Below the pieces are notes generated by a model, which searched no databases, was not told the DNA's origin, and saw nothing but the letters and a program-made list of their open reading frames with translations. A stretch of DNA of 64,000 nt from Vicinamibacteria bacterium. GTDB taxonomy: Bacteria > Acidobacteriota > Vicinamibacteria > Marinacidobacterales > Marinacidobacteraceae. Every line of letters starts with the position of its first letter. The stretch's first letter is position 1. Shown here one piece after another: positions 904-64,000 of the stretch. Location of the stretch: contig OY729431.1 in the NCBI GenBank assembly GCA_963422395.1, positions 692,680-756,679 on the forward strand, read 5' to 3'. A program made the translations under genes and the position numbers.

Positions 904-916
904 GGCTTTTTCTCCT

Positions 917-2529: not shown

Positions 2530-2619
2530 GTTCTCGATGTGGGCTCTGTGGACCAGGGTCTCGAATTCTGAAGCCTTTTCGGGATCTTCGATCGATTTTT
2601 CCGCATTCCGGGAGCGCGG

Positions 2620-9919: not shown

Positions 9920-10209
9920 GGCAGCGGTCAGTATAGCACAGGTAACATGAGGCTTATAAAGATATTTATCATTTGATAAAAATCATGAAAAAGAAGCAAC
10001 GGATGCCGTGTCGCGGCGGCGGTGGAAGGGGCTAGAGCGTCTGCCGTCCCGCCGCGTCCACAGGCTGGTCCGGAGCGGCTCGCCGTGATCCACCTCCTGT
10101 TGGGTCGACATCGAACCGCACGGCTCGCCGTGACGCACCGCCCCCGCCGAGAATACGCCTTCCACTGCGGTGCGGCGCTTCCTCGCGGATGTGCTACGTT
10201 GTGCGTCGT
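9920..10209. promoter_or_regulatory. Divergent intergenic region with sharply AT-rich core (approx 9940-10010); likely promoters for the minus-strand defence operon and plus-strand toxin-antitoxin genes
   Basis: Sequence ggtaacatgaggcttataaagatatttatcatttgataaaaatcatgaaaaagaagc is less than 30% GC in a ~70% GC context. It is flanked by the start of the 6-gene minus-strand cluster and the start of the Phd/YefM gene. Confidence 0.35.
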
Positions 10210-11042: not shown

Positions 11043-11390
11043 ATGCAGGAAATTCGTATCTCGAAGTTCAAGGCGACCTGTCTCGAGGTCCTCGACCGGG
11101 TAGCGACGAGCGGCCGCCCGGTGTTGGTGACCCGGTTCGGCAGGCCGATCGCCCGGATCGTTCCGCCGCCGCCTGTTCCGCGGGCCGGATGGTTCGGCGC
11201 CATGAAGGGCACGGGCAGGATGAACGACGACCTGATCGCCCCGGCTGCCGACCCGGCGGAATGGGAAGGGCGGCAGACTCGCTCGACTTTCTGCGAACCG
11301 CGGCGGCGGGCATCGAGAGAGGCCGAAGCCGAAGCGGACGGAACCCGGGAGAGAGGCGAGAGACGCTCCCGCCGGCGGGTGCCGGAATAG
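11043..11390 (+). CDS. Second Phd/YefM-family antitoxin, apparently orphan (no toxin gene follows)
   Basis: MQEIRISKFKATCLEVLDRVATSGRPVLVTRFGRPIARIVPPPP...DDLIAPAADPAEWEGRQ. The C-terminal Arg/Glu-rich tail to 11390 may be read-through. True stop uncertain. Confidence 0.5.
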   Translation: MQEIRISKFKATCLEVLDRVATSGRPVLVTRFGRPIARIVPPPPVPRAGWFGAMKGTGRMNDDLIAPAADPAEWEGRQTRSTFCEPRRRASREAEAEADGTRERGERRSRRRVPE

Positions 11391-11445
11391 ACTCACCGAG
11401 AACCTCGCCCCTGAGAACCTCGCTCCTGACGGTCGGAGGGCTTGC

Positions 11446-13971: not shown

Positions 13972-14069
13972 CACGAACGCGGGAGCCCGGCGCCAACTGA
14001 CGCCAAAGCTAGACTGAGCGAGCGTCTTCGACCGCCCAATCCGGGAACCGGGTTCCCAGGTGCCGCCTC

Positions 14070-16511
14070 TTGCCGACTCCCCGTTTCGTGTGGCGGGGCG
14101 TTGCCGCAGTTTGGTTTTCGGGCCTGTTGGCCGGTGCCGCGCCCGCTCCGTCAGGACCCGCTCCGCCGCCCGATGACCGCCGGGACCGACGAATCCAGGG
14201 ACGAATCCAGGACGGACAACAGGACGGACGAGACGAGCAGGGCGGCCACGACCGCCGGGGCGGCTCTTCGTTCGGCCTGCGCGGGGCGGGCAGGCTCGCG
14301 GACCGTCAGCAGGATCCCGGTGCGGCGATGGCCGGCCGTATCCTCGGTCCACCGGCGCCCGTGGCCGGCGAGTCGGTCCGCCGCGGCGCCGGCGGGCGGG
14401 TGACGCTCCGCGCCTTCCGCTTGGCTGAGCCCCTCACCGTGGACGGGGTGCTCGACGATCCGGTGTACGACCAGGCGCCGGCGGCGGACGGATTCGTGCA
14501 GCAGGAGCCCGACGAGGGCGCGCCGGCCTCGGAGTCCACCCGCGTCTGGGTGTTCTACGACGCGGACAGCCTCTACATCGCCGCCGAGCTGGAAGAATTG
14601 CATCCGGGGCGGCTAATGGCCAGAGAGATGCGCCGCGACCACCGGAGCATCGGCTGGAACGACAGCTTCCAGGTCATCCTCGACACCTTCTACGACCGCC
14701 GGAACGGTTTCCTGTTCCATACGAACGCGCTGGGGGCGCTCTACGACGCGCAGGTGACCGACGAACGGAACACCAACAGCGACTGGAACACGGTCTGGTG
14801 GGTCGAGACCGCAACCGGGGAACGGGGCTGGACGGCGGAGATCCGCATCCCCTTCCGCTCACTGCGCTACGCCGCCGGCGGACCCCAGCTCTGGGGGATC
14901 AACTTCCAGCGGAACATCAAGCACCGGAACGAAAAGGTGTTCTTCACCCCCACGCCGCAGGCCTACAACCGGGAGGCGCTGATCCGCCTGTCCAATGCCG
15001 CGACGCTCGTGGGTCTCGAAGCGCCCTCCGGGTCCCGGCGGATGGAGCTGAAGCCGTACCTGATCGGTTCGCAGCAGCACGCTCCCCTGAACGGCGTCGC
15101 GAACGAATGGTCCGGCGACCTCGGCGCCGACTTCAAGTTCGGGGTCACCGACGGGCTGACCGCCGATGTCACCTGGAACACCGACTTCGCGCAGGTGGAA
15201 GACGACGAGACCCAGATCAACCTGAGCCGTTTCAGCCTGTTCTTCCCGGAAAAGCGCGAGTTCTTCCTCGAAGGGCAGGGGGTCTTCGACTTCGGCGGCC
15301 GCCAGACCCGCGCCTTCGGCGGTCCGACGGACGTTCCCATCCCCTTCTTCAGCCGCTCGATCGGCATCTCGGACAGCTCTGTAGTGCCGATTCTCGGCGG
15401 CGCGCGGCTCCACGGCCGCGCCGGCGCCTACCAACTGGGGCTCCTGAACATCCAGGCCGGCGACGTCCCCGGACTCGATGCGGCGAGCACGAACTTCAGC
15501 GCCTTTCGGGTGAAACGCGACCTCTTCGCCCGGTCCAGCATCGGAGTGATCGCCACGCACCGCAACGTCGGCGCCGACGGATCGGGCTCCAACTCCCTCT
15601 ATGGCGCCGACGGGAACTTCAACCCGACCGAGAACATCCGGATCAACACCTTCTACATGGGGACCCGCGAGTCCGGCGTCGAAACCGGACACCGGGCCGC
15701 CAGCTATCTGGGCCAGTTCCGCTACGACACCGACCTGATCGACCTCACCGCCGAGCGTCTCTATCTGGGCGAGGACTTCGACCCGGGCATGGGCTTCGTG
15801 CGCCGCCGGGATTTCACGAAGAACGGAGGCAGCCTCCAGTTCTCCCCGCGTCCCCGGGGGATCGAACGGATCCGGCAGTTCGAGTTCAAGGCGGAGGCGA
15901 ACGACTACCGGCGCCCCGACGGCGGACTCGAAACGCGGGAGTACTCGTTCGAGGGACGCGCCATCTTCGAGAGCAGCGACCGTTTCGTGGTGGACCACAG
16001 CGTGACCGAAGAGCGGCTGCTGGACGGTTTCGACCTCTCGGACACGGTCGGAGTGCCCGCCGGGAACTACCGTTTCGCCCGCACCGGCGTCCGTTTCTGG
16101 ATGGGAACGCACCGCGCGGTCTCCGGATACTTCCGCTACGAGTTCGGGGACTTCTTCGGCGGCTCTCGCCGGGAGGTGAGCTACTGGGGGCGCGCCGAGG
16201 TGAACCGCCGCTTCTCCATGGAGCCGAATATCAGCCTCAACTGGATCGAGGTGCCGGAGGGAGAACTCCGGGCGCAGGTCAGCCGGCTGCGCGCGACCTG
16301 GACGGTCTCTCCGCGCAGCTTCGTGGGAGCACTCCTCCAATACAACTCGGCGGCGCAGCTCTTCTCTGCCAACGTCCGTTTCCGCTGGGAGTACTCGCCG
16401 GGCAGCGATGTGTTCATGGTCTTCAGCACGAACCGCGACGGCGGCGACGGGCTCTCCGGACTCACCGACCGGGCGCTGGTCGTCAAGTTCACCCGGCTGT
16501 TCCGGTTCTGA
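14070..16511 (+). CDS. DUF5916 / CBM9-like domain outer-membrane protein, paralog 2 of 3
   Basis: About 85% identical to paralog 1 over the conserved domains. Same motifs and the LFRF C-terminus. TTG start with signal-like VAAVWFSGLLAGAAPAP. This is followed by a low-complexity linker DRRDRRIQGRIQDGQQDGRDEQ encoded by short tandem repeats. Confidence 0.65.
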   Translation: MPTPRFVWRGVAAVWFSGLLAGAAPAPSGPAPPPDDRRDRRIQGRIQDGQQDGRDEQGGHDRRGGSSFGLRGAGRLADRQQDPGAAMAGRILGPPAPVAGESVRRGAGGRVTLRAFRLAEPLTVDGVLDDPVYDQAPAADGFVQQEPDEGAPASESTRVWVFYDADSLYIAAELEELHPGRLMAREMRRDHRSIGWNDSFQVILDTFYDRRNGFLFHTNALGALYDAQVTDERNTNSDWNTVWWVETATGERGWTAEIRIPFRSLRYAAGGPQLWGINFQRNIKHRNEKVFFTPTPQAYNREALIRLSNAATLVGLEAPSGSRRMELKPYLIGSQQHAPLNGVANEWSGDLGADFKFGVTDGLTADVTWNTDFAQVEDDETQINLSRFSLFFPEKREFFLEGQGVFDFGGRQTRAFGGPTDVPIPFFSRSIGISDSSVVPILGGARLHGRAGAYQLGLLNIQAGDVPGLDAASTNFSAFRVKRDLFARSSIGVIATHRNVGADGSGSNSLYGADGNFNPTENIRINTFYMGTRESGVETGHRAASYLGQFRYDTDLIDLTAERLYLGEDFDPGMGFVRRRDFTKNGGSLQFSPRPRGIERIRQFEFKAEANDYRRPDGGLETREYSFEGRAIFESSDRFVVDHSVTEERLLDGFDLSDTVGVPAGNYRFARTGVRFWMGTHRAVSGYFRYEFGDFFGGSRREVSYWGRAEVNRRFSMEPNISLNWIEVPEGELRAQVSRLRATWTVSPRSFVGALLQYNSAAQLFSANVRFRWEYSPGSDVFMVFSTNRDGGDGLSGLTDRALVVKFTRLFRF
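14160..14260 (+). repeat. Short tandem/low-complexity repeats (gacgaatccagg x2, acggac/acgagc units) in the N-terminal linker of DUF5916 paralog 2
   Basis: gaccgacgaatccagggacgaatccaggacggacaacaggacggacgagacgagcagg, read directly. Encodes DRRIQGRIQDGQQDGRDEQ. Confidence 0.6.
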
Positions 16512-16542
16512 CGCGCGGGCCGTCAGGCCACCACTCCCCTTC

Positions 16543-19032
16543 GTGCTCTCATCCCGCCCGCGATTCGACCGCCCGCGATTCGACCGGCCGCGATTCGACC
16601 GGCCCCGATCCGGCCCGTCATCCTTCGGCCCATCGCGATCCGGGTGCTTCTCCCCGTTCGCGCTGGCCCTGGGCAGCCTGCTCTGCCCCTCCGCCCTCTT
16701 CGCGCAGGGGGATCCCGAGCAGCGCGGATCGAACGGACGAAAAGCCGCCGAACAGGAGACCGCTGGGCAGGAGGTCGTCGGGCAGGGGACCGATTCCCCG
16801 GAGGAACTAGGCTTCGTGGTACGGGGTCCGGCAGCACCCGAGCTCCCCGAGATGGTGCGCCGCGACGACCTCGGCGGCGCCACCATGCGCGCCGCCCGGC
16901 TCGAAGAGCCGCTCGATTTCGACGGCCGCCTCGACGATGCGGTCTACGACCGAGTGCCGGGGGTTTCGGGGTTCCTACAGGCGCTGCCGCTCGAAGGGGA
17001 GCCGGCGACCGAGGATACCGAGGTCTGGGTCTTCTTCGACGACGATGCGGTGTATGTCGCCGGCCGCGCCTGGGATTCTCAGCCCGAGCGGATGGTGGCC
17101 ACCGAGATGCGGCGCGACAACTTCGGCATCTTCAACAACGAGAATCTGGCCGTCATCTTCGACACCTTCTACGACCGCCGGAACGCTTTCTTCTTCTACA
17201 TGAATCCCATCGGCGGGTTCTTCGACGGGCTCATCGTGGACGAACGGAATGTCAACCGCGACTGGACCGCAGTCTGGGATTCCCGCGCCGCCCGTTTCGA
17301 GGGCGGCTGGACGATGGAGATGCGGATTCCGTTCAAGACGCTGCGCTACGCCAGCGGCGGCCCGCAGGTCTGGGGCATCAACTTCCGCCGGGTGGTCCGC
17401 TGGAAGAACGAGATCTCCTACCTGACCCGCGTGCCCGCCGCGCTCGGCCCGCGGGCGATCACCAAGGTCAGTTCCGCCGGCACCCTCGTCGGTCTCGTCG
17501 CGCCGGCCAGCTCGCGGACGGTCGAGGTGAAGCCGTACGGAATCGGGAGCGCCGCTGGAGCGCGGGGAGACAGCGCCGGTGCCCTCGACCGGGAATTCAG
17601 CGGCGATGTCGGCGTGGACGCGAAGGTCGGGATCACCAGCGGGCTCACCGCCGATCTCACCTGGAACACCGACTTCGCCCAGGTGGAGGCCGACGCGCAG
17701 CAGATCAACCTCACTCGGTTCAGCCTCTTCTTCCCCGAAAAGCGCGAGTTCTTCCTCGAGGGGCAGGGAATCTTCGGCTTCGGAACCTCGACCAGAGCCC
17801 CGCCGGCGGGCTCGACCCGCAGCTTCGGGCCGCCGAGCAGTACCCCGGTGCTCTTCTTCAGCCGGAAGATCGGCATCGCCGACGGCCAGGCGGTGCCGAT
17901 CCTCGGCGGCGGGCGGGTGACCGGGAAGCTGGGCGGTTACCACCTCGGGGCGCTCGCCATCCGCAGCGGGGGAAGCGCCGCCGCCGGCGCTCCGGCGACC
18001 GATTTCTCCGTCCTCCGGCTGAAACGGGATGTGCTGAGCCGCAGCACCGTGGGGGTCATCGGGACCTACCGCTCGCACACCGAGAGCACTTCCAACGCGA
18101 GCGGCTGGGGCCGGAACTTCGCCTACGGGATGGATGCCCGCTTCGGGTTCTTCGAGCACCTCGACATCCGCAGCTACGCCGCCTGGACGCAGAACGAGCG
18201 CGAAGACCGGACCGGGATGAGTTATCTCGGCCAACTCGAGTACGGCGGCGACCGCTACGGGCTGCAGCTGGAGCGGCTCGTCGTCGGCGAGGGCTTCGAC
18301 CCCGGAATCGGGTTTCTGCGCCGCCGCGATTTCCAGCGCAACTACGCCGAGGCCCGCTTCAGCCCCCGGCCGTACTCGATTCCCTGGCTGCGCAAGATCG
18401 GCTGGACCGGCAGCATCGACTACACCACCGACAACGAGGGTGTCCTGGAGACCCGGATCTTTTCGCTGCGCCAGGAAATGGAGTTCGAGAACGGCGACAG
18501 CTTCCGCGTGAACGCGGCGCGCAATCGGGAAGTGCTCGGCGAGGACTTCCAGCTCGGCGACGACCTCGGAGTGGCGGCGGGGGCGTACGACTTCGGCTTC
18601 GCCCGCCTCAGCTACCAGGCAGGCCCCCAGCGTGCGGTCTCGGGCAACTTCGCCTACCAGCAGGGCGGTTTCTTTTCGGGAACCCGGCGGGAACTCGCCT
18701 GGCGCGGCCGGGTCGAGGTCATGCCGCGGCTCACCCTCGAGCCCTCGTTCTCGCTGAACTGGATCGCGCTCCCCGAGGGGGACTACGACACCCGGCTGGT
18801 CGCCTCTCGGGTCAACTACACCCTTTCGCCGCGGAGCTTCCTCGCCGCCTTCCTCCAGTACAACAGCGCCGCGAACAGCCTCTCCACGAATGTCCGCTTT
18901 CGCTGGGAGTACCAGCCGGGCAGCGACTTCTATGTCGTGTACAACTCGGTCCGCGACTCCCTGGTCCCCGGCTATCCCGAGCTCGAAACCCAGACCCTCA
19001 TCGTGAAGTTCACCCGCCTCTTCCGCTTCTGA
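16543..19032 (+). CDS. DUF5916 / CBM9-like domain outer-membrane protein, paralog 3 of 3 (more divergent)
   Basis: Same architecture: CBM9-like N-domain, DLTWNTDFAQVEADAQQINLTRFSLFFPEKREFFLEG, C-terminal IVKFTRLFRF. Signal peptide CFSPFALALGSLLCPSALFAQG. No ATG sits between the previous stop (16511) and the signal peptide. Start assigned to GTG near 16543, uncertain. Confidence 0.6.
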   Translation: MLSSRPRFDRPRFDRPRFDRPRSGPSSFGPSRSGCFSPFALALGSLLCPSALFAQGDPEQRGSNGRKAAEQETAGQEVVGQGTDSPEELGFVVRGPAAPELPEMVRRDDLGGATMRAARLEEPLDFDGRLDDAVYDRVPGVSGFLQALPLEGEPATEDTEVWVFFDDDAVYVAGRAWDSQPERMVATEMRRDNFGIFNNENLAVIFDTFYDRRNAFFFYMNPIGGFFDGLIVDERNVNRDWTAVWDSRAARFEGGWTMEMRIPFKTLRYASGGPQVWGINFRRVVRWKNEISYLTRVPAALGPRAITKVSSAGTLVGLVAPASSRTVEVKPYGIGSAAGARGDSAGALDREFSGDVGVDAKVGITSGLTADLTWNTDFAQVEADAQQINLTRFSLFFPEKREFFLEGQGIFGFGTSTRAPPAGSTRSFGPPSSTPVLFFSRKIGIADGQAVPILGGGRVTGKLGGYHLGALAIRSGGSAAAGAPATDFSVLRLKRDVLSRSTVGVIGTYRSHTESTSNASGWGRNFAYGMDARFGFFEHLDIRSYAAWTQNEREDRTGMSYLGQLEYGGDRYGLQLERLVVGEGFDPGIGFLRRRDFQRNYAEARFSPRPYSIPWLRKIGWTGSIDYTTDNEGVLETRIFSLRQEMEFENGDSFRVNAARNREVLGEDFQLGDDLGVAAGAYDFGFARLSYQAGPQRAVSGNFAYQQGGFFSGTRRELAWRGRVEVMPRLTLEPSFSLNWIALPEGDYDTRLVASRVNYTLSPRSFLAAFLQYNSAANSLSTNVRFRWEYQPGSDFYVVYNSVRDSLVPGYPELETQTLIVKFTRLFRF
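16553..16600. repeat. Three tandem copies of a 13-bp unit (cgcgattcgaccg + 1-2 variable bases)
   Basis: ccgcccgcgattcgaccgcccgcgattcgaccggccgcgattcgaccggcc, read directly. Lies in the 5' leader/N-terminus of paralog 3, where it encodes PRFDRPRFDRPRFDRP. Confidence 0.8.
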
Positions 19033-54313: not shown

Positions 54314-55114
54314 CGGCCCACCGTGCGCGTCATCACCTGGAACCTCAATTCGATCCGCACCCGCCGGAACCGGCTGTTCCGCCTGCTCGAGCGCCACCGG
54401 CCCGATGTCCTGTGCCTTCAGGAACTTCGCGCCGAGGCCGGAGTTTTTCCCACCGCCGAGGTGCGGGCCGCCGGATACCACGCACTCGTCCACGCGCAAG
54501 CAGCGCGGAACGGGGTGGCGATCCTTTCCCGGGAGCCCGCCCGAGAACGGCGCCGCGGCTTGCCGCCTTGCGCGGCGCGCGGCGAAGCGCGGCTGCTCGA
54601 CGCCTCGGTGGGGGGAGTGCGGGTGGTCTCTGCGTATGTCCCCAACGGCAAGGCGGTCACCCATCCCGACTGGGAGTACAAGCTGGGCTGGTTCACCGGG
54701 CTGCGGGAGCACCTCGATCGGGAAGGGGACGCCGGGGAGGCCCTGATCCTCTGCGGCGACTTCAATGTGGCGCCCAGCGATCGGGACGCGAGCTCGCCGA
54801 GCCGGGAGAGCGTGCTCTGCCATCCTGCGGCCCGGGCCGCGCTCGCCCGCATCCGGACCTGGGGGCTCCTCGACGCCTACCGGCTGGTCTTCGCCGAGGG
54901 CGAAGAACCGAAGAAGGGGATCTACACCTGGTGGGACTACACCCGGATGGCCTTCGCTCGGAACGAGGGGGCGCGGATAGACCACATCTATCTCACCCGG
55001 CCGCTCGCCGGGAAGGTCGAAGCCGTCTTCGTGGACCGCGACGAGCGCCGCCAGAAGAAGGGGCAGGACATCCCCTCGGACCACGCCCCGGTGGTCTGCG
55101 ATCTCGCCCTCTGA
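54314..55114 (+). CDS. xth: Exodeoxyribonuclease III (Xth) / AP endonuclease
   Basis: GTG start gives MRVITWNLNSIRTRRNRLF...DVLCLQELR...NGVAIL...CGDFNVAPSD...IDHIYL...PSDHAPV, the canonical ExoIII motifs. Confidence 0.7.
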   Translation, partial: RPTVRVITWNLNSIRTRRNRLFRLLERHRPDVLCLQELRAEAGVFPTAEVRAAGYHALVHAQAARNGVAILSREPARERRRGLPPCAARGEARLLDASVGGVRVVSAYVPNGKAVTHPDWEYKLGWFTGLREHLDREGDAGEALILCGDFNVAPSDRDASSPSRESVLCHPAARAALARIRTWGLLDAYRLVFAEGEEPKKGIYTWWDYTRMAFARNEGARIDHIYLTRPLAGKVEAVFVDRDERRQKKGQDIPSDHAPVVCDLAL

Positions 55115-55255
55115 CCCGTCAGCGCCGCCCGCTCCGGGAGCGCAGCGCGCGGCGAATGGCTCTTGCGTCGGAAGGGTCTCTTGTCCTACCCTTGTCTGCT
55201 ACTCGCTGCGTCTTCGGAACCGGTTTTCCCTAGCCGCTCTCCAGCGTTCAGAACC

Positions 55256-57802
55256 ATGCGCTTTTTCTTGGGCTTCGCTGCTCTAGTGCTCGCTGCAGGC
55301 AACCACGCCCAGATCTCTCACGCCCGGGCCTTCGAGGCCCGGATCTCCGAAGCCCGGAACCCCGAGGCCCGCTTTTCGCCAGAGAGCCCCGGGCTGTCGG
55401 CGGTGCGTGGGTGGTCGTCGGGGTCGGGGTCGGGGGTGGGGGTTTCAGGAGTTGGGGCTGGGTCGTCGGCGGAGCACAACCGGATGGTTCGGACGTATTG
55501 CGTGGTGTGTCACAACGACCGGATGCGGACGGGGAACATGTCGTTGTCGGGTTTCGATGCGGGGGATGCGTCGTCGAGTCCGGAGTTGTCGGAGAAGGTG
55601 GTATCGAAGCTGCGTTTGGGGATGATGCCGCCGCCAGGGGCGCGTCGTCCGGCGGAGGAGGTATTGGAGGAGGTTGCGGGGTCTTTGGAGGGTCAGTTGG
55701 ATCGGAATGCGGAGGAGCATCCGAATCCGGGGAGGCGTTCGTTTCAGCGTTTGAATCGTGCGGAGTACACGGCGGCGGTTCGGGATTTGCTGGCGTTGCC
55801 GGTGGATGCTGCGGAGTATTTGCCTCAGGACACGATCAGCGCGAACTTCGACAACATCGCGGATGTTCAGTTGTTGTCGGCGACATTGATGGATTCGTAT
55901 TTGCGTGCGGCGGGCGAGATCAGTCGGCTGGCGGTGGGCGATCCGAACGCTGTGCCCGCCGAGACGAGCTACTTCGTTTCCCGCTGGTCTTCGCAGCGCC
56001 TACAGGTCGAGGGCGCTCCGTACGGAACCCGCGGCGGGATCGCGGTGGAGCACACTTTTCCGGCCGACGGACACTATGTGTTCCGGGTTTCGCTGCATCA
56101 TGAGGTCTGCGGCCCGATCGTCGGCACCGCTGCCGGAGCGCTGAACTCGGAGCAGGATCCCGAGCAACTCGAAGTCTCGATCGACGGCGAGCGCGTGGCG
56201 CTGCTCGCGATCGATCCCTGGATGCACACTTCGGACCCGAACGGGGCGACGATGCGGACCGAGCCCATCTTCATCGAAGCCGGGCCGCGCCGGGTGGCCG
56301 CTGCCTTCCTGCGCCAGTTCGATGGCCCCGTTCAGGACTTGATCTCTCCGCACGACTGGTCGCTGGCGAGCACGAACATCGCGCTCACCTACGGCATCCA
56401 CAGCCTGCCGCATCTGCGGGATGTACTGATTCGCGGTCCGTTCGAGGCGACGGGGGTATCGGAGACGCCGAGTCGGAGTCGGATATTCGGTTGTCGTCCA
56501 CTGTCGTCGGAGGAGGCGGTTGGGTGCGCGGAGGAGATCTTGGGACGTTTGGGGCGTTTGGCGTATCGCCGGAGTTTGACGGGGGAGGAGTTGGGAGCGT
56601 TGATGGAGCTGTATGCGTCGGGTTCGGAGAGTGTGGGTTTCGAGGAGGGGATTCGGATGGGGATCGAGGGGATGCTGGCGAGTCCGAACTTCGTATTTCG
56701 GATCGAGGAGCCGGTGGATCCCCGTGAGGCGGCGTTCGGGTATCGGCTGAGCGACACGGACCTGGCGTCTCGTTTGTCGTTTTATCTTTGGGGGACGATA
56801 CCGGACGAGGAGTTGCTGGATTCGGCGGAGTCGGGGCGTTTGTCGGATGCGGAGGAGTATGAGGGTCAGGTGCGTCGGATGCTGTCGGATCCGCGTTCGC
56901 TGGCGTTGTCGAAGCGTTTTGCGAGCCAGTGGTTTCGGTTACAGGATTTGGAGAAGATCAACCCGAACGTGCGTTTGTTTCCGGATTTCCATCAGCAGCT
57001 GAAGGAGGCGATGGTGGAGGAGACGGAGCGTTTTTTCCATCATTTGGTATTGGAGGACCGGAGCGTATTGGAGTTGTTCACGGCGGACTACACATTCGTG
57101 AATGAGCGATTGGCGAAGCACTACGGGATGACGGGGGTAGCGGGGCCGGAGCACCGTTTGGTGCGGTATGGGGATGCGGGCCGGCGTGGGATATTCGGTC
57201 ACGGGAGCATTTTGACATTGACTTCGCATCCGTATCGGACATCGGCGGTGCTGCGGGGCAAGTGGGTGATGGAGGTATTGCTGGGGAGCCCGCCGCCGCC
57301 GCCGCCGCCGAATGTTCCGGACCTGGACGCGACGGCGGCGACGGCGGATGGGCGTGAGCTGACGGCGCGGGAGCGTTTGGAGATCCATCGGGACAACCCG
57401 GCGTGCCGTTCGTGCCACCGGATGATGGACCCGATCGGGTTGGCGCTGGAGCACTACGATGTGACGGGTCGGGAGCGGGTGAAGGACTCGGGGCAGCCGA
57501 TCGATGCGTCGGGAGAGTTCTACGACGGGACGGCGATTCGGGATGTGGGTGATCTGCGGGCGGCGCTGCTGCTGCGGCCGACGCCGCTGCTGCGGACGTT
57601 CACGGAGAACCTGATGGCGTATGCGTTGGGGAGGCGGGTGGAGTATTACGATCAGCCGCGGGTGCGAGAGATCGTGCGCGAGGCGGCGGAGTCGGACTAT
57701 CGGATGTCGGCGTTCTTGTTGGGCGTGGCGCGGAGTCCGGCGTTCCAGAGGAAGGGAGTTTCGGAGCCGTCGCCGGTGGCGACGGAGCTGGGCGAGCCCT
57801 GA
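55256..57802 (+). CDS. DUF1592/DUF1587/DUF1595-family di-heme cytochrome-like protein (Planctomycete-type PSCyt/PSD domains), copy 1
   Basis: Signal peptide MRFFLGFAALVLAAGNHAQ. Alternative TTG start at 55163. Two CxxCH haem motifs: YCVVCHND and ACRSCHRMMDPIG. Also a PPPPPPP tract. Followed by a DUF1552 gene, as is typical for this family. Confidence 0.65.
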   Translation: MRFFLGFAALVLAAGNHAQISHARAFEARISEARNPEARFSPESPGLSAVRGWSSGSGSGVGVSGVGAGSSAEHNRMVRTYCVVCHNDRMRTGNMSLSGFDAGDASSSPELSEKVVSKLRLGMMPPPGARRPAEEVLEEVAGSLEGQLDRNAEEHPNPGRRSFQRLNRAEYTAAVRDLLALPVDAAEYLPQDTISANFDNIADVQLLSATLMDSYLRAAGEISRLAVGDPNAVPAETSYFVSRWSSQRLQVEGAPYGTRGGIAVEHTFPADGHYVFRVSLHHEVCGPIVGTAAGALNSEQDPEQLEVSIDGERVALLAIDPWMHTSDPNGATMRTEPIFIEAGPRRVAAAFLRQFDGPVQDLISPHDWSLASTNIALTYGIHSLPHLRDVLIRGPFEATGVSETPSRSRIFGCRPLSSEEAVGCAEEILGRLGRLAYRRSLTGEELGALMELYASGSESVGFEEGIRMGIEGMLASPNFVFRIEEPVDPREAAFGYRLSDTDLASRLSFYLWGTIPDEELLDSAESGRLSDAEEYEGQVRRMLSDPRSLALSKRFASQWFRLQDLEKINPNVRLFPDFHQQLKEAMVEETERFFHHLVLEDRSVLELFTADYTFVNERLAKHYGMTGVAGPEHRLVRYGDAGRRGIFGHGSILTLTSHPYRTSAVLRGKWVMEVLLGSPPPPPPPNVPDLDATAATADGRELTARERLEIHRDNPACRSCHRMMDPIGLALEHYDVTGRERVKDSGQPIDASGEFYDGTAIRDVGDLRAALLLRPTPLLRTFTENLMAYALGRRVEYYDQPRVREIVREAAESDYRMSAFLLGVARSPAFQRKGVSEPSPVATELGEP

Positions 57803-57902
57803 GCTAGGAGAGAGCGATGCACTATCTGACAGGGAAGAGAGTTCCGCGGCGGAGTTTTCTGCGGGGAGCGGGTGCGGCGGTGGCGCTGCCGTTTCTGGAT
57901 GC
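55394..57902 (+). repeat. Copy A of a 6098-bp-spaced direct duplication (partner 61492-64000)
   Basis: Direct comparison: 55394-55920 versus 61492-62018 differ at only a few positions. 55920-56440 versus 62018-62538 are only about 80% identical. 56440-57902 versus 62538-64000 are identical at every position checked. The offset is constant at 6098. Confidence 0.85.
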
Positions 57903-59199
57903 GATGGTTCCGGCGAGCGTGATTGCGAAGCCGGGGGCGTCGGAGCGAACGCGGCTGGTGGCGATCGAGATCGTGCACGGCGCGGCGGGGAGCAACGAGT
58001 ATGGGCGGGAGCAGAACCTGTGGTCGCCGGCTGCGGAGGGTGCGGAGTTCGATCTGTCCGAGGGTGCGTTGAGCCCGCTTGCGCCGTATCGGGACCATGT
58101 GACGATCGTGAGCGATTGTGATGTGGAGCCGGCAGAGGCGGAGACGGCGCGTGAGATCGGAGGGGACCACTTCCGTTCGAGCGCGGCGTTCCTGACGCAG
58201 TCGCATCCGAAGCAGACGGAGGGTTCGGATGTGCACGCGGGGACTTCGCTGGACCAGCTGTATGCGGCGCGCTTCGGCCAGGAGACGCCGATTCCTTCGA
58301 TGCAGCTGTGCATCGAGACGGTGGACCAAGCGGGAGGGTGCGCGTACGGGTATGCGTGCGTGTACACGGACACGATCAGCTGGGCGTCGCCGACGCAGCC
58401 GCTGCCGATGACGCGGGACCCGCGGATCGTGTTCGATCAGCTGTTCGGCGCGGGGGGGACGCCGGAGGGCCGAGTGGCGCGTCAGCAGGCGCGCAAGAGC
58501 GTGCTGGACTTCATCGGAGAGGAAGTCCGGCGGCTCCAGGGGGCGCTGGACCCGGAGGATGTGCGGCGGATGGACCGGTATCTGACGGACATCCGTGAGA
58601 TGGAGCGTCGGATCGAGCGGATCGTGGAGCGGAACACGAGCGGAGAGCTGCGTGACCTGCCGGAGGCGCCGTCGGGAGTCCCGGACTCGTTCGACGAGCA
58701 TGTGAAGATCATGTTCGACCTGCAGGCGCTGGCGTTCCAGTCGGACATGACGCGGGTGTTCAGCTTCAAGCTGGGACGGGATGCGTCGAGCCGGGTGTAT
58801 CCGGAGAGCGGAGAAGCGACGGCGTTCCACCCGGCATCGCACCACGGGAACGACCCGGAGCGGGTGGAGGTTCTGGGACGGATCAATCGGTACCATGTGG
58901 GCTTGGTCCCGTATTTCATGGAGCGGCTCGCGGGGATCGAGGAGGGAGACCGCTCGCTGCTGGACAAGACGATGATCCTGTATGGGTCCCCGATGGGAGA
59001 CCCGAACATCCACAACCACAAGCGGGTTCCGTTCTTCGTCGCAGGCGGTGCGAACGGGGCGCTGGAGCATGGCCTGCATTTGCGGGCGGCGGCGGGTACG
59101 CCGCTGGCGAACGTGATGCTGACGCTGTTGCACGAGCTGGGTCTGGACGACCTCCCGCGCTTCGGAAACAGCACCGGAGAGTTCTCCCTTTCGGCGTGA
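57817..59199 (+). CDS. DUF1552-domain protein with twin-arginine (Tat) signal, copy 1
   Basis: AGGAGAG RBS. MHYLTGKRVPRRSFLRGAGAAVALPFL is the Tat motif RRSFLRG. 460 aa. Standard partner of DUF1592 proteins. Confidence 0.65.
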   Translation: MHYLTGKRVPRRSFLRGAGAAVALPFLDAMVPASVIAKPGASERTRLVAIEIVHGAAGSNEYGREQNLWSPAAEGAEFDLSEGALSPLAPYRDHVTIVSDCDVEPAEAETAREIGGDHFRSSAAFLTQSHPKQTEGSDVHAGTSLDQLYAARFGQETPIPSMQLCIETVDQAGGCAYGYACVYTDTISWASPTQPLPMTRDPRIVFDQLFGAGGTPEGRVARQQARKSVLDFIGEEVRRLQGALDPEDVRRMDRYLTDIREMERRIERIVERNTSGELRDLPEAPSGVPDSFDEHVKIMFDLQALAFQSDMTRVFSFKLGRDASSRVYPESGEATAFHPASHHGNDPERVEVLGRINRYHVGLVPYFMERLAGIEEGDRSLLDKTMILYGSPMGDPNIHNHKRVPFFVAGGANGALEHGLHLRAAAGTPLANVMLTLLHELGLDDLPRFGNSTGEFSLSA

Positions 59200-59231
59200 G
59201 CCGGGGGCGCGCCGGGGAGGAGATCTGGAAA

Positions 59232-61298
59232 ATGGAGATGGAGAGGAACGGAGAGAAGCGGAAGGCGGGGCTGTTGCTGTGCCTCGCGGCGGGGCTCGCG
59301 GCGGCGTGCCTATCGCTGGCGGGGGCCTCGTTCGCGGCGCGGGTGCCGCCGGTTCTGGAGGCGGCGAAGCGTGGAGATGTCGAGGCGCTGCGGTCGGAGC
59401 TGCGGTCGGGGGGAGATGTGAACACGGCGCAGGGGGACGGTTTCACCGCGCTGCACTGGGCGGCGAAGACGGGGAGCCGCGAGGTGGCGGAGGTGTTGAT
59501 CGCGGCGGGAGCGGACCTGCGGGCGACGACGCGGCTGGGAAGCCACATGCCGTTGCATGTGGCGGCGGCAGCGGGGCAGCCGGGGGTTGCGGAAGCGCTG
59601 CTCGAGGCCGGCGCTCCGGTCGCTGCAACCACCGGAACCGGCGCTCGGCCCATCCACTTCGCCGCCGCCTCCGGGAACCCCTCCCTGATCGAAGTGCTCG
59701 CGGGGAAGGGCGCTGACCTGAATGTGGTCGAACCGCAGTGGGGGCAGACCCCGCTCATGTTCGCCGCCGCCACCGGCCGCGCCGCGGCGGTCGAGGCGCT
59801 GCTGGTTCGAGGGGCGGATCCCTCCGCGACGGCCTCGGTCCTCGATGTGGCGGCGCGGGCAGAAGCCGACCTGCTGGCCCGCCGGGCCCGTCAGGCGCGG
59901 GTAGATCGCGAGCGGGGCGGGGCCGGCGTGATCTACGACCCTCGGGAACGGGACAAGCAGCGCAAGGAAGCGCAGCGGCGGGCGAAGGCGGCCGCTGCCG
60001 CCAAGGCGGAGCGCGAGAAAGGGCGCACCGAAGAAACGCCCGCAGCCTCCGGTTCCGGAAAGAGCGGCTCTGCGGATCTCGCCGACCTGAAGCTGGAGGG
60101 AAAGAAGCCAGCGGAGGACGGGGAGGGCGCAGCCGATGCGGAAGCGTCCGAAGCCGAAAAGGACGAACACGCGGAGGCTCACGGCCACCCCGAAGACGAA
60201 CTCGTCCGGGAAGAAGAGAAGACCCGGAAAGAAGACGAGCAGAAGGCCGCCGCCCGGAAGGGTGGTGACTCCGGGAAGGAAAACCGGCAGCCGCTGCGGT
60301 ATGCCGAACTCGTGGGCACCCACGGCGGTCTGACGGCGCTGCTGCTCGCTGCCCGCGACGGCCATCTCGAAGCGGCGGCGGCTCTGCTGGACGGAGGCGC
60401 CGCTGTCGATCAGCGAGCTGAAGGACACCGGACGACCCCGCTTCTGATGGCCGCCATCAACGGCCACTACGACCTCGGCATGGAGCTGCTCGCCCGCGGT
60501 GCCGACCCGAACCTCAGGAACATCTCCGGTGCCGCTCCGCTCTATGCAGCCATCAACGCCCGCTGGATTTCCCAACCCTTCCACCCGCAGCCGGCAGACC
60601 ACCTGCAGCAGCAGAACTCGCATGTCGAGTTCATGGAAGCGCTGATCGAGGCCGGCGCCGATATCGATGCTCGGCTCGAGCGGAAGCAGTGGTACAGCAC
60701 CTACAACACCGACCAGCTCGGAGTGAACCGGGCCGGGGCGACCGCCTTCTGGCGCGCTGCGTACGCGCTGGACATTCCGGCGATGGAACTGCTCGTTGCG
60801 CACGGTGCGGACCCTTCGATTCCCACCATGAAGGTCCCCGAACGGACGCTGCGCCGGCTGACGGACCTGGTCTCCGAAGATCCGGAGGAGGATCCTTCGG
60901 GGCTGCCCGAGGTGCCCTACGGAGGGCCTGGCGTCTATCCGATCCACGCTGCCGCCGGGGTGGGCTACGGGCTGGGTCTCGCGGCGAACTCGCATCGCCA
61001 CGCTCCCGACGCCTGGCTGCCGGCGGTGCAGTACCTGGTGGAGGAACACGGCGCCGATCCGGACGCCCGAGACCACAATGGATACAGCGTCATCCACCAC
61101 GCCGCTTCGCGCGGGGACAACGAGATGATCGAGTATCTGATCGGGAAGGGCGCCGATCCGTTGGCGGTCGCCCGGACCGGCCAGACGACGATCGATCTCG
61201 CGAACGGTCCGGTGCAGCGGATCAGCCCCTTCCCGGAAACCATCGCGCTACTCGAAGGTTACGGCGCCAAGAACAACAACCGCTGCGTCGGGTGCTGA
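59232..61298 (+). CDS. Secreted ankyrin-repeat protein with charged low-complexity central linker
   Basis: GGAGGAG RBS 9 nt upstream. Signal peptide MEMERNGEKRKAGLLLCLAAGLAAACLSLAGASFA. ANK repeats (GFTALHWAAKTGSREVAEVLIAAGADL, MPLHVAAAAGQPGVAEALLEAGA, TPLLMAAINGHYDLGMELLARGADPN, YSVIHHAASRGDNEMIEYLIGKGADP). A ~130-aa K/E/A-rich linker sits in the middle. Confidence 0.65.
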   Translation: MEMERNGEKRKAGLLLCLAAGLAAACLSLAGASFAARVPPVLEAAKRGDVEALRSELRSGGDVNTAQGDGFTALHWAAKTGSREVAEVLIAAGADLRATTRLGSHMPLHVAAAAGQPGVAEALLEAGAPVAATTGTGARPIHFAAASGNPSLIEVLAGKGADLNVVEPQWGQTPLMFAAATGRAAAVEALLVRGADPSATASVLDVAARAEADLLARRARQARVDRERGGAGVIYDPRERDKQRKEAQRRAKAAAAAKAEREKGRTEETPAASGSGKSGSADLADLKLEGKKPAEDGEGAADAEASEAEKDEHAEAHGHPEDELVREEEKTRKEDEQKAAARKGGDSGKENRQPLRYAELVGTHGGLTALLLAARDGHLEAAAALLDGGAAVDQRAEGHRTTPLLMAAINGHYDLGMELLARGADPNLRNISGAAPLYAAINARWISQPFHPQPADHLQQQNSHVEFMEALIEAGADIDARLERKQWYSTYNTDQLGVNRAGATAFWRAAYALDIPAMELLVAHGADPSIPTMKVPERTLRRLTDLVSEDPEEDPSGLPEVPYGGPGVYPIHAAAGVGYGLGLAANSHRHAPDAWLPAVQYLVEEHGADPDARDHNGYSVIHHAASRGDNEMIEYLIGKGADPLAVARTGQTTIDLANGPVQRISPFPETIALLEGYGAKNNNRCVGC

Positions 61299-61305
61299 CA
61301 AGAGG

Positions 61306-63900
61306 ATGCGGCGTTTGACTTTCGATGGCGAGGCGAGGGTCGGCCGCGTTCCCTTTGCGATTTCCGTTTTCCTGATTTCCCTGCTGCCGATTGCCGCCGG
61401 GGCCTCTTCGGCTGCGGCAGCACCGTCTCTCCCACCGTCCTCGCCGCAGGCGTCAGCGGTCGAAGGATCGCCGCCGCTTTCCGCTTCTGCGCTGTCGGCG
61501 GTGCGTGGGTGGTCGTCGGGGTCGGGGTCGGGGGTGGGGGTTTCAGGAGTTGGGGCTGGGTCGTCGGCGGAGCACAACCGGATGGTTCGGATGTATTGCG
61601 TGGTGTGTCACAACGACCGGATGCGGACGGGGAACATGTCGTTGTCGGGTTTCGATGCGGGGGATGCGTCGTCGAGTCCGGAGTTGTCGGAGAAGGTGGT
61701 GTCGAAGCTGCGTTTGGGGATGATGCCGCCGCCAGGGGCGCGTCGTCCGGCGGAGGAGGTATTGGAGGAGGTTGCGGGGTCTTTGGAGGGTCAGTTGGAT
61801 CGGAATGCGGAGGAGCATCCGAATCCGGGGAGGCGTTCGTTTCAGCGTTTGAATCGTGCGGAGTACACGGCGGCGGTTCGGGATTTGCTGGCGTTGCCGG
61901 TGGATGCTGCGGAGTATTTGCCTCAGGACACGATCAGCGCGAACTTCGACAACATCGCGGATGTTCAGTTGTTGTCGGCGACATTGATGGATTCGTATTT
62001 GCGTGCGGCGGGCGAGATCAGTCGGCTGGCCGTGGGCGATCCGAACGCTGCGCCCGCCGAGACCGGCTACCATGTGTCGCGTTGGGCGTCCCAGCTGGAC
62101 CAGGTCGAGGGCGCTCCGTACGGAACCCGCGGCGGGATCGCGGTGGAGCATGTCTTTCCCGCTGACGGTGCATACCGATTCCGAGTGGCGTTCCACCATG
62201 AGACGACCGGCGCGATCGTGGGTTCGGGATCGAGTTCGCTCCATACCCTGGACGCTCCGGAACGAGTGGAGATCTCGATCGACGGCGAGCGGGTGGCGCT
62301 GCTCACGGTCGACCGCTGGATGCATGTCTCCGATCCCGACGGGGTCAACTTGCGGACCGAGCCCATCTTCGTCCGCGGGGGGCCGCGCCGGGTTGCTGCT
62401 GCCTTCCTGAAACATTACGAGGGTCCGGTCCTCGACTTGATCTCTCCGCACGACTGGTCGCTGGCGAGCACCGCGACCTCGAGGACCTACGGCATCCACA
62501 ATGTCCCCCACCTGCGGGATTTCTTCATCACCGGTCCGTTCGAGGCGACGGGGGTATCGGAGACGCCGAGTCGGAGTCGGATATTCGGTTGTCGTCCACT
62601 GTCGTCGGAGGAGGCGGTTGGGTGCGCGGAGGAGATCTTGGGACGTTTGGGGCGTTTGGCGTATCGCCGGAGTTTGACGGGGGAGGAGTTGGGAGCGTTG
62701 ATGGAGCTGTATGCGTCGGGTTCGGAGAGTGTGGGTTTCGAGGAGGGGATTCGGATGGGGATCGAGGGGATGCTGGCGAGTCCGAACTTCGTATTTCGGA
62801 TCGAGGAGCCGGTGGATCCCCGTGAGGCGGCGTTCGGGTATCGGCTGAGCGACACGGACCTGGCGTCTCGTTTGTCGTTTTATCTTTGGGGGACGATACC
62901 GGACGAGGAGTTGCTGGATTCGGCGGAGTCGGGGCGTTTGTCGGATGCGGAGGAGTATGAGGGTCAGGTGCGTCGGATGCTGTCGGATCCGCGTTCGCTG
63001 GCGTTGTCGAAGCGTTTTGCGAGCCAGTGGTTTCGGTTACAGGATTTGGAGAAGATCAACCCGAACGTGCGTTTGTTTCCGGATTTCCATCAGCAGCTGA
63101 AGGAGGCGATGGTGGAGGAGACGGAGCGTTTTTTCCATCATTTGGTATTGGAGGACCGGAGCGTATTGGAGTTGTTCACGGCGGACTACACATTCGTGAA
63201 TGAGCGATTGGCGAAGCACTACGGGATGACGGGGGTAGCGGGGCCGGAGCACCGTTTGGTGCGGTATGGGGATGCGGGCCGGCGTGGGATATTCGGTCAC
63301 GGGAGCATTTTGACATTGACTTCGCATCCGTATCGGACATCGGCGGTGCTGCGGGGCAAGTGGGTGATGGAGGTATTGCTGGGGAGCCCGCCGCCGCCGC
63401 CGCCGCCGAATGTTCCGGACCTGGACGCGACGGCGGCGACGGCGGATGGGCGTGAGCTGACGGCGCGGGAGCGTTTGGAGATCCATCGGGACAACCCGGC
63501 GTGCCGTTCGTGCCACCGGATGATGGACCCGATCGGGTTGGCGCTGGAGCACTACGATGTGACGGGTCGGGAGCGGGTGAAGGACTCGGGGCAGCCGATC
63601 GATGCGTCGGGAGAGTTCTACGACGGGACGGCGATTCGGGATGTGGGTGATCTGCGGGCGGCGCTGCTGCTGCGGCCGACGCCGCTGCTGCGGACGTTCA
63701 CGGAGAACCTGATGGCGTATGCGTTGGGGAGGCGGGTGGAGTATTACGATCAGCCGCGGGTGCGAGAGATCGTGCGCGAGGCGGCGGAGTCGGACTATCG
63801 GATGTCGGCGTTCTTGTTGGGCGTGGCGCGGAGTCCGGCGTTCCAGAGGAAGGGAGTTTCGGAGCCGTCGCCGGTGGCGACGGAGCTGGGCGAGCCCTGA
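61306..63900 (+). CDS. DUF1592/DUF1587/DUF1595-family di-heme cytochrome-like protein, copy 2
   Basis: Different N-terminus from copy 1 (MRRLTFDGEARVGRVPFAISVFLISLLPIAAGASSAAAA). From 61492 onward it is near-identical to copy 1, apart from a ~520-bp diverged patch. Same CVVCH and CRSCH motifs. Confidence 0.65.
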   Translation: MRRLTFDGEARVGRVPFAISVFLISLLPIAAGASSAAAAPSLPPSSPQASAVEGSPPLSASALSAVRGWSSGSGSGVGVSGVGAGSSAEHNRMVRMYCVVCHNDRMRTGNMSLSGFDAGDASSSPELSEKVVSKLRLGMMPPPGARRPAEEVLEEVAGSLEGQLDRNAEEHPNPGRRSFQRLNRAEYTAAVRDLLALPVDAAEYLPQDTISANFDNIADVQLLSATLMDSYLRAAGEISRLAVGDPNAAPAETGYHVSRWASQLDQVEGAPYGTRGGIAVEHVFPADGAYRFRVAFHHETTGAIVGSGSSSLHTLDAPERVEISIDGERVALLTVDRWMHVSDPDGVNLRTEPIFVRGGPRRVAAAFLKHYEGPVLDLISPHDWSLASTATSRTYGIHNVPHLRDFFITGPFEATGVSETPSRSRIFGCRPLSSEEAVGCAEEILGRLGRLAYRRSLTGEELGALMELYASGSESVGFEEGIRMGIEGMLASPNFVFRIEEPVDPREAAFGYRLSDTDLASRLSFYLWGTIPDEELLDSAESGRLSDAEEYEGQVRRMLSDPRSLALSKRFASQWFRLQDLEKINPNVRLFPDFHQQLKEAMVEETERFFHHLVLEDRSVLELFTADYTFVNERLAKHYGMTGVAGPEHRLVRYGDAGRRGIFGHGSILTLTSHPYRTSAVLRGKWVMEVLLGSPPPPPPPNVPDLDATAATADGRELTARERLEIHRDNPACRSCHRMMDPIGLALEHYDVTGRERVKDSGQPIDASGEFYDGTAIRDVGDLRAALLLRPTPLLRTFTENLMAYALGRRVEYYDQPRVREIVREAAESDYRMSAFLLGVARSPAFQRKGVSEPSPVATELGEP

Positions 63901-64000
63901 GCTAGGAGAGAGCGATGCACTATCTGACAGGGAAGAGAGTTCCGCGGCGGAGTTTTCTGCGGGGAGCGGGTGCGGCGGTGGCGCTGCCGTTTCTGGATGC
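61492..64000 (+). repeat. Copy B of the duplication (partner 55394-57902); extends to window end
   Basis: See copy A. Identity continues to the last base of the window, so the repeat may be longer. Confidence 0.85.
63916..64000 (+). CDS. DUF1552-domain Tat-signal protein, copy 2 (5' end only, runs off window)
   Basis: Identical over 85 nt to the start of the 57817 gene (MHYLTGKRVPRRSFLRGAGAAVALPFLD). Confidence 0.5.

Follow-up and report, generated by a model that had tools for sequence, protein, structure and literature searches.

We analysed a window of 64,000 nucleotides from the genome of a Vicinamibacteria bacterium (contig OY729431.1, assembly GCA_963422395.1; 'the window' is this whole stretch), and in particular two tandem modules near its 3′ end. 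Each module consists of a DUF1592-type gene and a DUF1552 (HXXSHH) gene, followed by an ankyrin-repeat gene. The two modules are nearly identical over sharply bounded tracts, and these tracts are written in a codon style, rich in G and poor in C at third positions, that differs from that of their surroundings. The genes, and the segments into which the modules fall, are as follows (positions in the window, + strand throughout).

55256..57802, + strand, DUF1592-type gene copy A, encoding PSD3, PSD5, PSD4, PSCyt3 and PSD2 domains (Pfam, E = 2e-47 to 2e-18)
55393..55932, + strand, putative converted tract 1 of copy A, in G-ending style, identical to 61491-62030 except at 55494 and 55603
55933..56433, + strand, patch A, a cassette specific to this copy and native in codon style, located between the regions for the PSD3 and PSD5 domains
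56434..59603, + strand, putative converted tract 2 of copy A, in G-ending style, made up of the 3′ 1.37 kb of the DUF1592-type gene, the whole DUF1552 gene and the first ~400 nt of the ankyrin gene
57817..59199, + strand, DUF1552 (HXXSHH) gene copy A (Pfam, E = 4e-82), entirely in G style (C 0.08 and G 0.76 at four-fold sites)
59196..61298, + strand, ankyrin-repeat gene A, with a hydrophobic, signal-like N-terminus and an uncertain start (GTG at 59196 or ATG at 59232)
59604..61298, + strand, distal ankyrin region, in native style (third-position G/(G+C) 0.47 versus 0.81 upstream)
61306..63900, + strand, DUF1592-type gene copy B (from the list of open reading frames and Pfam), with its own unrelated N-terminus at 61306-61490
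61491..62030, + strand, putative converted tract 1 of copy B, by sequence comparison
62031..62531, + strand, patch B, in native style, by sequence comparison
62532..64000, + strand, putative converted tract 2 of copy B, in which DUF1552 copy B starts at 63915, and which continues beyond the window end

According to Pfam, both long genes encode the same PSD3/PSD5/PSD4/PSCyt3/PSD2 set, in which PSD4 is DUF1592, and each of the two proteins has a CxxCH motif. The open reading frame (ORF) of copy A opens at 55163 with TTG and has its first ATG at 55256. It contains a CxxCH motif (YCVVCHN, encoded at about 55504-55524) and is separated from the DUF1552 gene by 14 nt, so that the domain set, the adjacency and the motif of a PSCyt3/PSD plus DUF1552 gene pair are all present. 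In Planctomycetes and Verrucomicrobia, PSCyt3/PSD-domain genes have been described beside a gene of unknown family, with unknown function (PMC5615132). The genes studied here resemble those pairs in their domain set (PSD3, PSD5, PSD4, PSCyt3, PSD2) and in the adjacent gene of unknown function, here DUF1552. They differ in having a third gene attached, the ankyrin gene with the signal-like N-terminus, and in the tandem duplication of the triplet, which is seen in marine Vicinamibacteria and some Gemmatimonadota. The literature that we searched contains very little on DUF1592 or DUF1552.

Copies A and B lie at a constant offset of 6098 nt, and comparison within the window places the onset of identity exactly at 55393 and 61491. 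Between 55393-55932 and 61491-62030 there are two differences (C/T at 55494 and A/G at 55603), and between 56434-57902 and 62532-64000 there are none over 1,469 nt, as far as the window end. With two differences in 2,009 nt over both tracts, we can confirm that the copies are essentially identical at this offset, as an initial annotation of the letters had proposed. That annotation had also described a diverged central patch; the patch exists, although its size and identity, given as ~520 bp and ~80%, need correcting. The patch (55933-56433) is 501 bp long and has 130 differences, corresponding to 74% nucleotide and 69% amino-acid identity between the copies, and its codon differences comprise 51 nonsynonymous and 34 synonymous ones. 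Converted and unconverted segments thus form a mosaic with abrupt limits at 55393, 55933 and 56433. Identity of tract 2 to copy B is observed up to 57902, at which point copy B reaches the window end. Because the codon style changes at 59603 and contigs of relatives end at the equivalent of 59650 (see below), the data suggest that identity continues past 57902 to ~59600 (plus 6098 in copy B). The homogenised sequence therefore amounts to 0.54 kb plus at least 1.47 kb, and probably ~3.2 kb, in the second tract.

For codon style we compared two sets: the identical tracts together with DUF1552 and the first ~400 nt of the ankyrin gene ('tracts'), and both patches together with the distal ankyrin region ('native'). 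Four-fold degenerate sites number A 48, C 39, G 536 and T 76 in the tracts (C 6%, G 77%), as against A 29, C 218, G 230 and T 55 in the native set (C 41%, G 43%); for C versus G, this difference gives a Fisher p of 2e-55. In the tracts, GCG makes up 93% of Ala codons, CCG 92% of Pro, ACG 83% of Thr and GAG 97% of Glu, AAG reaches 95%, TTG accounts for 38% of Leu and CGT for 28% of Arg, and two-fold pyrimidine sites are only partially shifted to T. Overall G+C at four-fold sites falls slightly, from ~0.87 in the native set to ~0.80 in the tracts. Since four-fold C lies at 0.39-0.55 in the other genes called in the window, the tracts are strong local outliers. Maximum-likelihood change points in third-position G/(G+C) fall at 55393, ~55939, 56407 and 59603, the last within the ankyrin gene, and the first three coincide with the identity limits (55393, 55933 and 56433) to within ~25 nt. 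The description in the initial annotation of G-ending, C-poor identical blocks and C-ending patches and distal ankyrin sequence agrees with these counts, and its style switches near 55394, 55920, 56440 and 59600 are borne out by the change points. Long antisense ORFs over the module (e.g. 57697-59133, minus strand) were rejected as genes; reasoning from the reading frames, they are a by-product of the rarity of A at sense third positions.

We scanned one genome per species and obtained 78 related loci, with no copy of the source among them (L-numbers denote these and further loci that we fetched). The closest are from marine Vicinamibacteria, including Candidatus Marinacidobacterium, at 76-84% amino-acid identity. 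In 14 of 14 close relatives, two sodium:solute symporter (SSF) genes are followed, at the same locus, by the order DUF1592-DUF1552-ankyrin twice; two SSF genes are also upstream of module A in the window. The triplet further occurs in some Gemmatimonadota. The arrangement is thus not a module duplicated around an ankyrin gene, as first supposed, but an old tandem pair of three-gene modules that has the same position in all close relatives.

The patches bear on the age of this pair. In all relatives, it is the copy-2 patch that is closest to patch A (86-89% amino-acid identity, versus 61-66% for the copy-1 patch), whereas patch B is closer to the copy-1 patch (84-89%) than to the copy-2 patch (65-69%), and between species patches of the same type are better conserved than the flanks. 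Because each cassette has an orthologue in all relatives and conservation within each type exceeds that of the flanks, the two cassettes must be old, distinct and under purifying selection. The duplication is older than speciation, given that both copies occur at the same locus in 14 relatives and each patch has its own orthologue. The N-termini of the DUF1592 copies A and B are too short and divergent to be assigned to type 1 or 2. The C-terminal part of ankyrin gene A belongs to the ANK-1 type of the relatives (87% versus 71% amino-acid identity).

The order of the cassettes in the window is reversed compared to all 14 relatives: the type-2 patch lies in the module next to the xth and SSF genes, along with an ANK-1-type ankyrin gene, and the type-1 patch lies in the second module. 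The xth gene (54332-55114, + strand; Exo_endo_phos, E = 3e-32), of the exonuclease III / AP endonuclease family, is directly upstream of module A, a position conserved in L082 and L083, and in these two loci, too, xth is followed by a type-2 patch. The reversed order suggests either an exchange of cassettes in this clade through the identical flanks or a wrong assembly path through the repeat. In L012, an insertion of ~1.3 kb (15283-16574) separates DUF1592-2 from DUF1552-2, with an AT skew of −0.38 at 15700-16099.

When paralogues are compared within each genome, all 14 relatives with both DUF1592 copies share one shape of identity profile along the module, of which the window is the extreme case. 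In the relatives, identity is 62-78% in the central patch, 57-83% in the distal ankyrin region and 80-100% in most of the remaining DUF1592 sequence and DUF1552, with scattered paralogue tracts of 94-100%. In the window the copies are 100% identical in tracts, compared to ~81% nucleotide identity with the nearest relative. A DUF1552 tree separates copies 1 and 2 into orthologous groups of their own within two clades, L002/L004/L007/L008/L010 and L001/L006/L009, and in the remaining lineages the paralogues group by genome. Grouping by genome holds for every G-style lineage, and grouping by copy for the weak-style lineages. Because every relative shows the same landscape of conserved flanks and a copy-specific central patch, we are confident that these are old tandem modules of three genes that evolve in concert by recurrent gene conversion. 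Homogenising gene conversion, one of the options raised initially, therefore holds up, with the same identity landscape and the same omitted patch in all relatives that have both copies. Conversion spares the N-termini, the 501-bp cassette and the distal ankyrin region, which may be too divergent to recombine, selectively kept distinct, or both.

Another of the initial options was that the mosaic is an artefact of assembly, through a chimera or a collapsed repeat, to which a misrouted path through the repeat can be added. Identical repeats of several kb pose difficulties for assemblers, the two patches stand in the opposite order to that of 14 relatives, and one contig of a sister lineage, L083, joins xth, a type-2 patch, an ANK-2-type ankyrin gene and then a Lactamase_B gene, and so probably jumps between modules. 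A protein search returned the source protein (100% identical) together with matches at 88-89%, for two of which the contigs derive from short-read metagenomes. Short contigs of the sister lineage start at the window equivalent of 56432 (L079, L081, L085) and end at 59650 (L084, L085). Since a short-read assembler must break at the limits of an identical repeat, these ends mark where the identical repeat begins and stops. Independent assemblies of several species, from short reads (ENA, Logan) and from long reads, agree in style and limits, the source contig has a length of 2.9 Mb, and the type-2 patch is next to xth in L082 and L083 as well. Moreover, a style that conserves the encoded amino acids and leaves the protein intact cannot come from assembly. 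We thus regard an artefact as extremely improbable.

The G style is not peculiar to the window. In the nearest relatives, contig L083 carries the full mosaic, with a native patch between G tracts, a DUF1552 gene in G style throughout (C 0.04), an ankyrin gene whose first ~400 nt are in G style and whose remainder is native, and native genes downstream; contigs L079 and L082 have the same mosaic in the parts that they cover. This sister lineage has only ~81% nucleotide identity to the window. In other relatives, the four-fold sites of DUF1552 have C at 0.04-0.09 and G at 0.73-0.86 in L005, L013 and both copies of L011 and of L012. The style is intermediate in L001, L006 and L009 (C ~0.22) and weak in the L002 group (C ~0.37), and the flanks are always native. 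We rejected the idea that G style is a property of the DUF1552 family as a whole, as DUF1552 genes elsewhere are balanced, among them all 34 metagenome DUF1552 loci that we checked. Nor did we find the style across many native genes, which the initial annotation had offered as the observation that would overturn its interpretation: it is restricted to this module. The 712 genes called in the first 78 loci and the window include one other G-style gene, for an IS1182-family transposase in L001. Elsewhere in Longimicrobiales and other Gemmatimonadota loci, we noted third-position GC skews of +0.64 to +0.71 in L034 (18001-18600) and L040 (1-900 and 18001-18600), and of −0.60 in L063 (15301-15750).

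These comparisons bear on the possibility that the style was imported. An unsampled lineage with G-ending codons could have donated sequence by homologous introgression into the conserved parts of the module, with the new alleles then being copied into both modules and the divergent patch being skipped. A local codon outlier with sharp limits and identical copies does look recent, and the G-style IS1182 element beside the module in L001 indicates that G-style mobile DNA circulates in these genomes. However, amino-acid identity to relatives is 73-86% for the G tracts and 84-89% for the patch, which fits the patch-to-flank ratios of native lineages. We found no G-style patch gene or G-style flank in the 78 genome loci, in the nearest matches among 5.8 billion proteins or in the 34 metagenome DUF1552 loci, no similar sequence in plasmid or phage records, and a best match of 68% amino-acid identity in the metagenome scan. 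With the same limits present in a sister lineage at ~81% nucleotide identity, and the style persisting across lineages that are near saturation at synonymous sites, repeated imports with identical limits would be needed. Of the usual marks of a horizontally transferred island, we saw neither phylogenetic incongruence nor patchy presence, border mobility genes or matches to mobile elements, the adjacent insertion sequence (IS) being found in L001 only. A donor lineage is accordingly improbable in our judgement. The differently composed donor that was initially envisaged is at odds with tract proteins that are as close to relatives as the patch and flanking genes predict, and a recently acquired cassette with a mosaic that lacks plasmid or phage matches and recurs in the sister lineage, and which is thus old and maintained.

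Among the G-style relatives, the extent of the style varies along with that of the homogenised tract, and in three further lineages that have the style in DUF1552 it goes with a paralogue identity of 97-100%. In L011, G style covers the 3′ end of DUF1592 and DUF1552, where the paralogues are 97-100% identical. In L012, it is confined to DUF1552 (99-100% identical), while DUF1592 is native, with 65-88% identity across alignment windows. Along the module, paralogue identity is positively correlated with third-position skew in 11 of 11 genomes, with p < 0.05 in 7. The shift in composition is thus restricted to recombining tracts, as in GC-biased gene conversion (gBGC).

The shift is also almost purely synonymous. 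For DUF1552, G-style and native-style lineages hardly differ in base composition at codon positions 1 and 2 or in amino-acid composition: C at position 2 is 0.24-0.26 in all of them, and G at position 1 rises only from 0.36 to 0.38-0.40. This would be expected if selection acted on synonymous sites of the mRNA, for example through regulation by tRNAs decoding NNG codons, through the speed at which domains are translated, or through a preference for weakly structured, C-poor RNA. In support of the last, the RNA of a 1 kb G tract, compared with a native-style orthologue, has a predicted structure that is ~20% weaker (−418.6 versus −522.5 kcal/mol), and the fixation bias suggested by young variants (see below) would also be in keeping with selection. 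Selection of this kind does not readily account for a style that is turned off and on again inside one gene, within ~25 nt of the identity limits, or for an extent that varies by lineage along with the homogenised tract (DUF1552 only in L012, with part of DUF1592 in L011), or for DUF1552 genes elsewhere being balanced. Genes expected to have a high-expression codon style do not resemble the tracts either: EF-G, L17, rpoA and S4 of genome OZ244986, which are genes of a relative and not of the source genome, are balanced in C and G (four-fold C 0.40-0.50, G 0.26-0.43), and we rejected high-expression style as an explanation. Taking into account also the mirror-image IS family described below, which cannot be explained by tRNA-based preference, we think selection on the mRNA an unlikely cause.

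We also asked whether the style is a fading trace of a past event. Between the window and L083, synonymous identity is ~0.60 in the native patch, yet four-fold C in the tracts is 0.02-0.08 in both lineages; we estimate that a neutral relic would have relaxed to at least ~0.2. Because C has stayed at 0.02-0.08 despite much synonymous change, the style does not appear to be a decaying relic, and looks actively maintained. Young third-position changes, polarised among four close haplotypes of the sister lineage, comprise 17 from G to another nucleotide and 6 in the reverse direction (p = 0.035 versus 1:1). This ratio is what roughly unbiased mutation would produce on G-rich sequence, and not a mutational equilibrium, so some fixation bias probably restores G.

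The same numbers speak to a mutational bias associated with transcription, in which R-loops or an exposed non-template strand would leave their mark on a heavily transcribed operon independently of conversion. The excess of sense G over C and of T over A is indeed the classical signature of an exposed strand. On the other hand, the imbalance of the young variants is contrary to mutational equilibrium, and the patch, the N-termini and the distal ankyrin region are native in spite of being in the same transcription units. A 501-bp segment inside a gene would not be expected to escape either transcription-linked mutation or translational selection, and both are therefore disfavoured. G-quadruplex motifs, which we had also considered as drivers of recombination, are not enriched in the main tract, there being none in 56434-59600, and this candidate was rejected. 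Given further that the IS1634 family described next has the opposite sign relative to its coding strand, a transcription-associated bias seems very improbable.

The IS1182-family transposase gene that adjoins the module in L001 (genome OZ244986) belongs to a family with at least 10 copies encoding an identical transposase in that genome (L086-L095, 4001-5323). Its four-fold sites have C 0.12 and G 0.79. The gene in L001 is on the minus strand and is G-style in its own sense direction, so we rejected replication-strand skew as the sole cause of the style. A second family in OZ244986, IS1634 (L176-L185, 2001-3788; likewise at least 10 copies with an identical transposase), is the mirror image, with four-fold C 0.83 and G 0.06, CTC outnumbering CTG by 65 to 5, and GAA commoner than GAG. 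Relatives of both families in other genomes keep their style. These mirror-image patterns point to a strand-specific process that acts at the DNA level in repeatedly copied DNA, rather than to a preference based on tRNAs.

Taken together, the duplication and the mosaic represent concerted evolution of an ordinary kind. What is out of the ordinary is the codon style that follows the tracts, which is extreme, strand-specific, synonymous and conserved across species, and which is not explained by horizontal transfer, expression level or assembly. Our preferred explanation, on which we place nearly even confidence, combines concerted evolution with a strand-polar codon bias linked to conversion. 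For the second component on its own, namely that the cause of the style is linked to conversion, our support is tentative and leans somewhat below even. Under the preferred explanation, a strand-polar bias tied to the copying process would make and maintain the G-ending, C-avoiding style inside conversion tracts, preferably as a bias in transmission, that is, in fixation. The transferred heteroduplex strand might always be the antisense strand, for instance if nascent strands switch template at a fork of fixed direction. Mismatch repair would then reject well-recognised mismatches (G:T, G:G) and let poorly recognised ones pass (C:C and, less so, A:C). A donor with sense G would present C:C, which would pass, and a donor with sense C would present G:G, which would be rejected; likewise G would beat A, and T would beat C. 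The directions expected from this model (sense G over C and A, and T over C) are the directions observed. Among mismatches, G:T is the one that MutS and the pneumococcal Hex system detect most efficiently; A:C and G:G are also well recognised, whereas C:C almost escapes. Once a mismatch is recognised, formation of the heteroduplex is aborted or reversed. Alternatively, the bias could arise by strand-specific mutagenesis or damage of the single strand that is displaced in a recombination intermediate. We conjecture that the bias may act only once paralogues are nearly identical, when each new mismatch is judged singly. The specific mismatch-repair filter is, in our assessment, improbable in this exact form. 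More generally, marine Vicinamibacteria might have an undescribed strand-polar bias in gene conversion or copy-associated repair that drives the free synonymous sites of any DNA that is copied repeatedly to G on one strand and C on the other; we consider this conceivable, though rather unlikely.

Several observations weigh against a conversion-linked cause. Some tracts with 94-99% identity in L002, L004 and L007 lack G style. In the window, three tandem DUF5916 paralogues with weak CBM9 matches (11236-19032, + strand; period ~2.5 kb) have 71-96% nucleotide identity in tracts, and this family has a normal codon style, with no G or C skew despite partial homogenisation. Because of these near-identical tracts and this tandem family, conversion alone is insufficient to produce G style. 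In weak-style clades, ancestral differences between paralogues that were later homogenised show no bias of G over C (15:17 and 33:30). In the strong-style clade, a McDonald-Kreitman-like comparison of derived alleles present in a single copy versus both copies gave 38:2 versus 44:8 (p = 0.18), which is in the right direction without reaching significance, with a polarisation that is biased against detecting gains of G. A blind force at the DNA level that is this strong might have shifted amino-acid composition more than is seen. The IS copies are identical within the gene through recent transposition, and not demonstrably through conversion. Finally, the strand polarity that the model needs is an assumption.

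Two other features of the window lie apart from the modules. Positions 1-3000 are a compositional outlier, with G+C of 0.54-0.59 compared to 0.65-0.73 elsewhere in the window. At 6272-9982 (− strand), a protein of 1237 amino acids with predicted HTH, SNF2/DEAD helicase and NOV_C domains may be related to defence or restriction.

The locus is of interest in several respects. The module is kept in duplicate across marine Vicinamibacteria, many of which are apparently host-associated, and the good conservation of each copy-specific cassette suggests two distinct specificities that are worth functional study. Local codon-usage outliers are routinely read as horizontal gene transfer, and here the outlier is vertical, old and maintained, and follows the conversion tracts with a precision of tens of bases. 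In several species, one and the same gene combines converted tracts with an unconverted cassette, which provides a natural internal control. If a strand-polar bias in conversion or repair is indeed responsible, a recombination-linked force can override genome-wide codon usage in bacteria. Such a force would be visible in ordinary assemblies, and could mislead the detection of horizontal transfer, binning and the inference of gene age. The same bias would cover both the tracts of the tandem operons and the mirror-image extremes of IS1182 and IS1634, and would be a strand-asymmetric counterpart of gBGC. We found no description of this pattern in the literature searched.

Known systems share parts of the pattern. 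The tufA and tufB genes of Salmonella and E. coli are a known case of concerted evolution of bacterial paralogues, by RecA-dependent conversion. As in that case, the duplicates studied here are old and near-identical over tracts, and paralogues group by genome rather than by copy. Unlike in tufA/tufB, the repeated unit is a tandem module of three genes, conversion always leaves out a copy-specific cassette inside it, and the style in the tracts is strand-asymmetric and not that of highly expressed genes. With horizontally acquired islands they share a local outlier in codon usage with sharp limits, but they differ in having an orthologous position in all relatives, vertical protein distances, a mosaic within a gene, and no drift back to the native composition. 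GC-biased gene conversion has been recognised in multigene families such as the mammalian histone and Hsp70 genes and, as bacterial gBGC, in recombining bacterial genes. Here too, a shift in synonymous composition is restricted to converted sequence and plausibly arises by fixation bias; however, gBGC raises G+C on both strands, whereas in our tracts four-fold G+C falls slightly, and the gain of G at the expense of C is seen on one strand only (C 2-8%, G 76-86%). Strand asymmetry itself is known from the GC skew of leading and lagging strands and from the heavy and light strands of vertebrate mitochondrial DNA. The modules resemble these in that, on one strand, four-fold sites have far more G than C and more T than A, with a magnitude comparable only to that of mitochondrial genomes. 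In contrast to those systems, the asymmetry in the modules is found in tracts of 0.5-3 kb inside genes, with limits that are those of conversion, and its sign differs between IS elements of a single genome.

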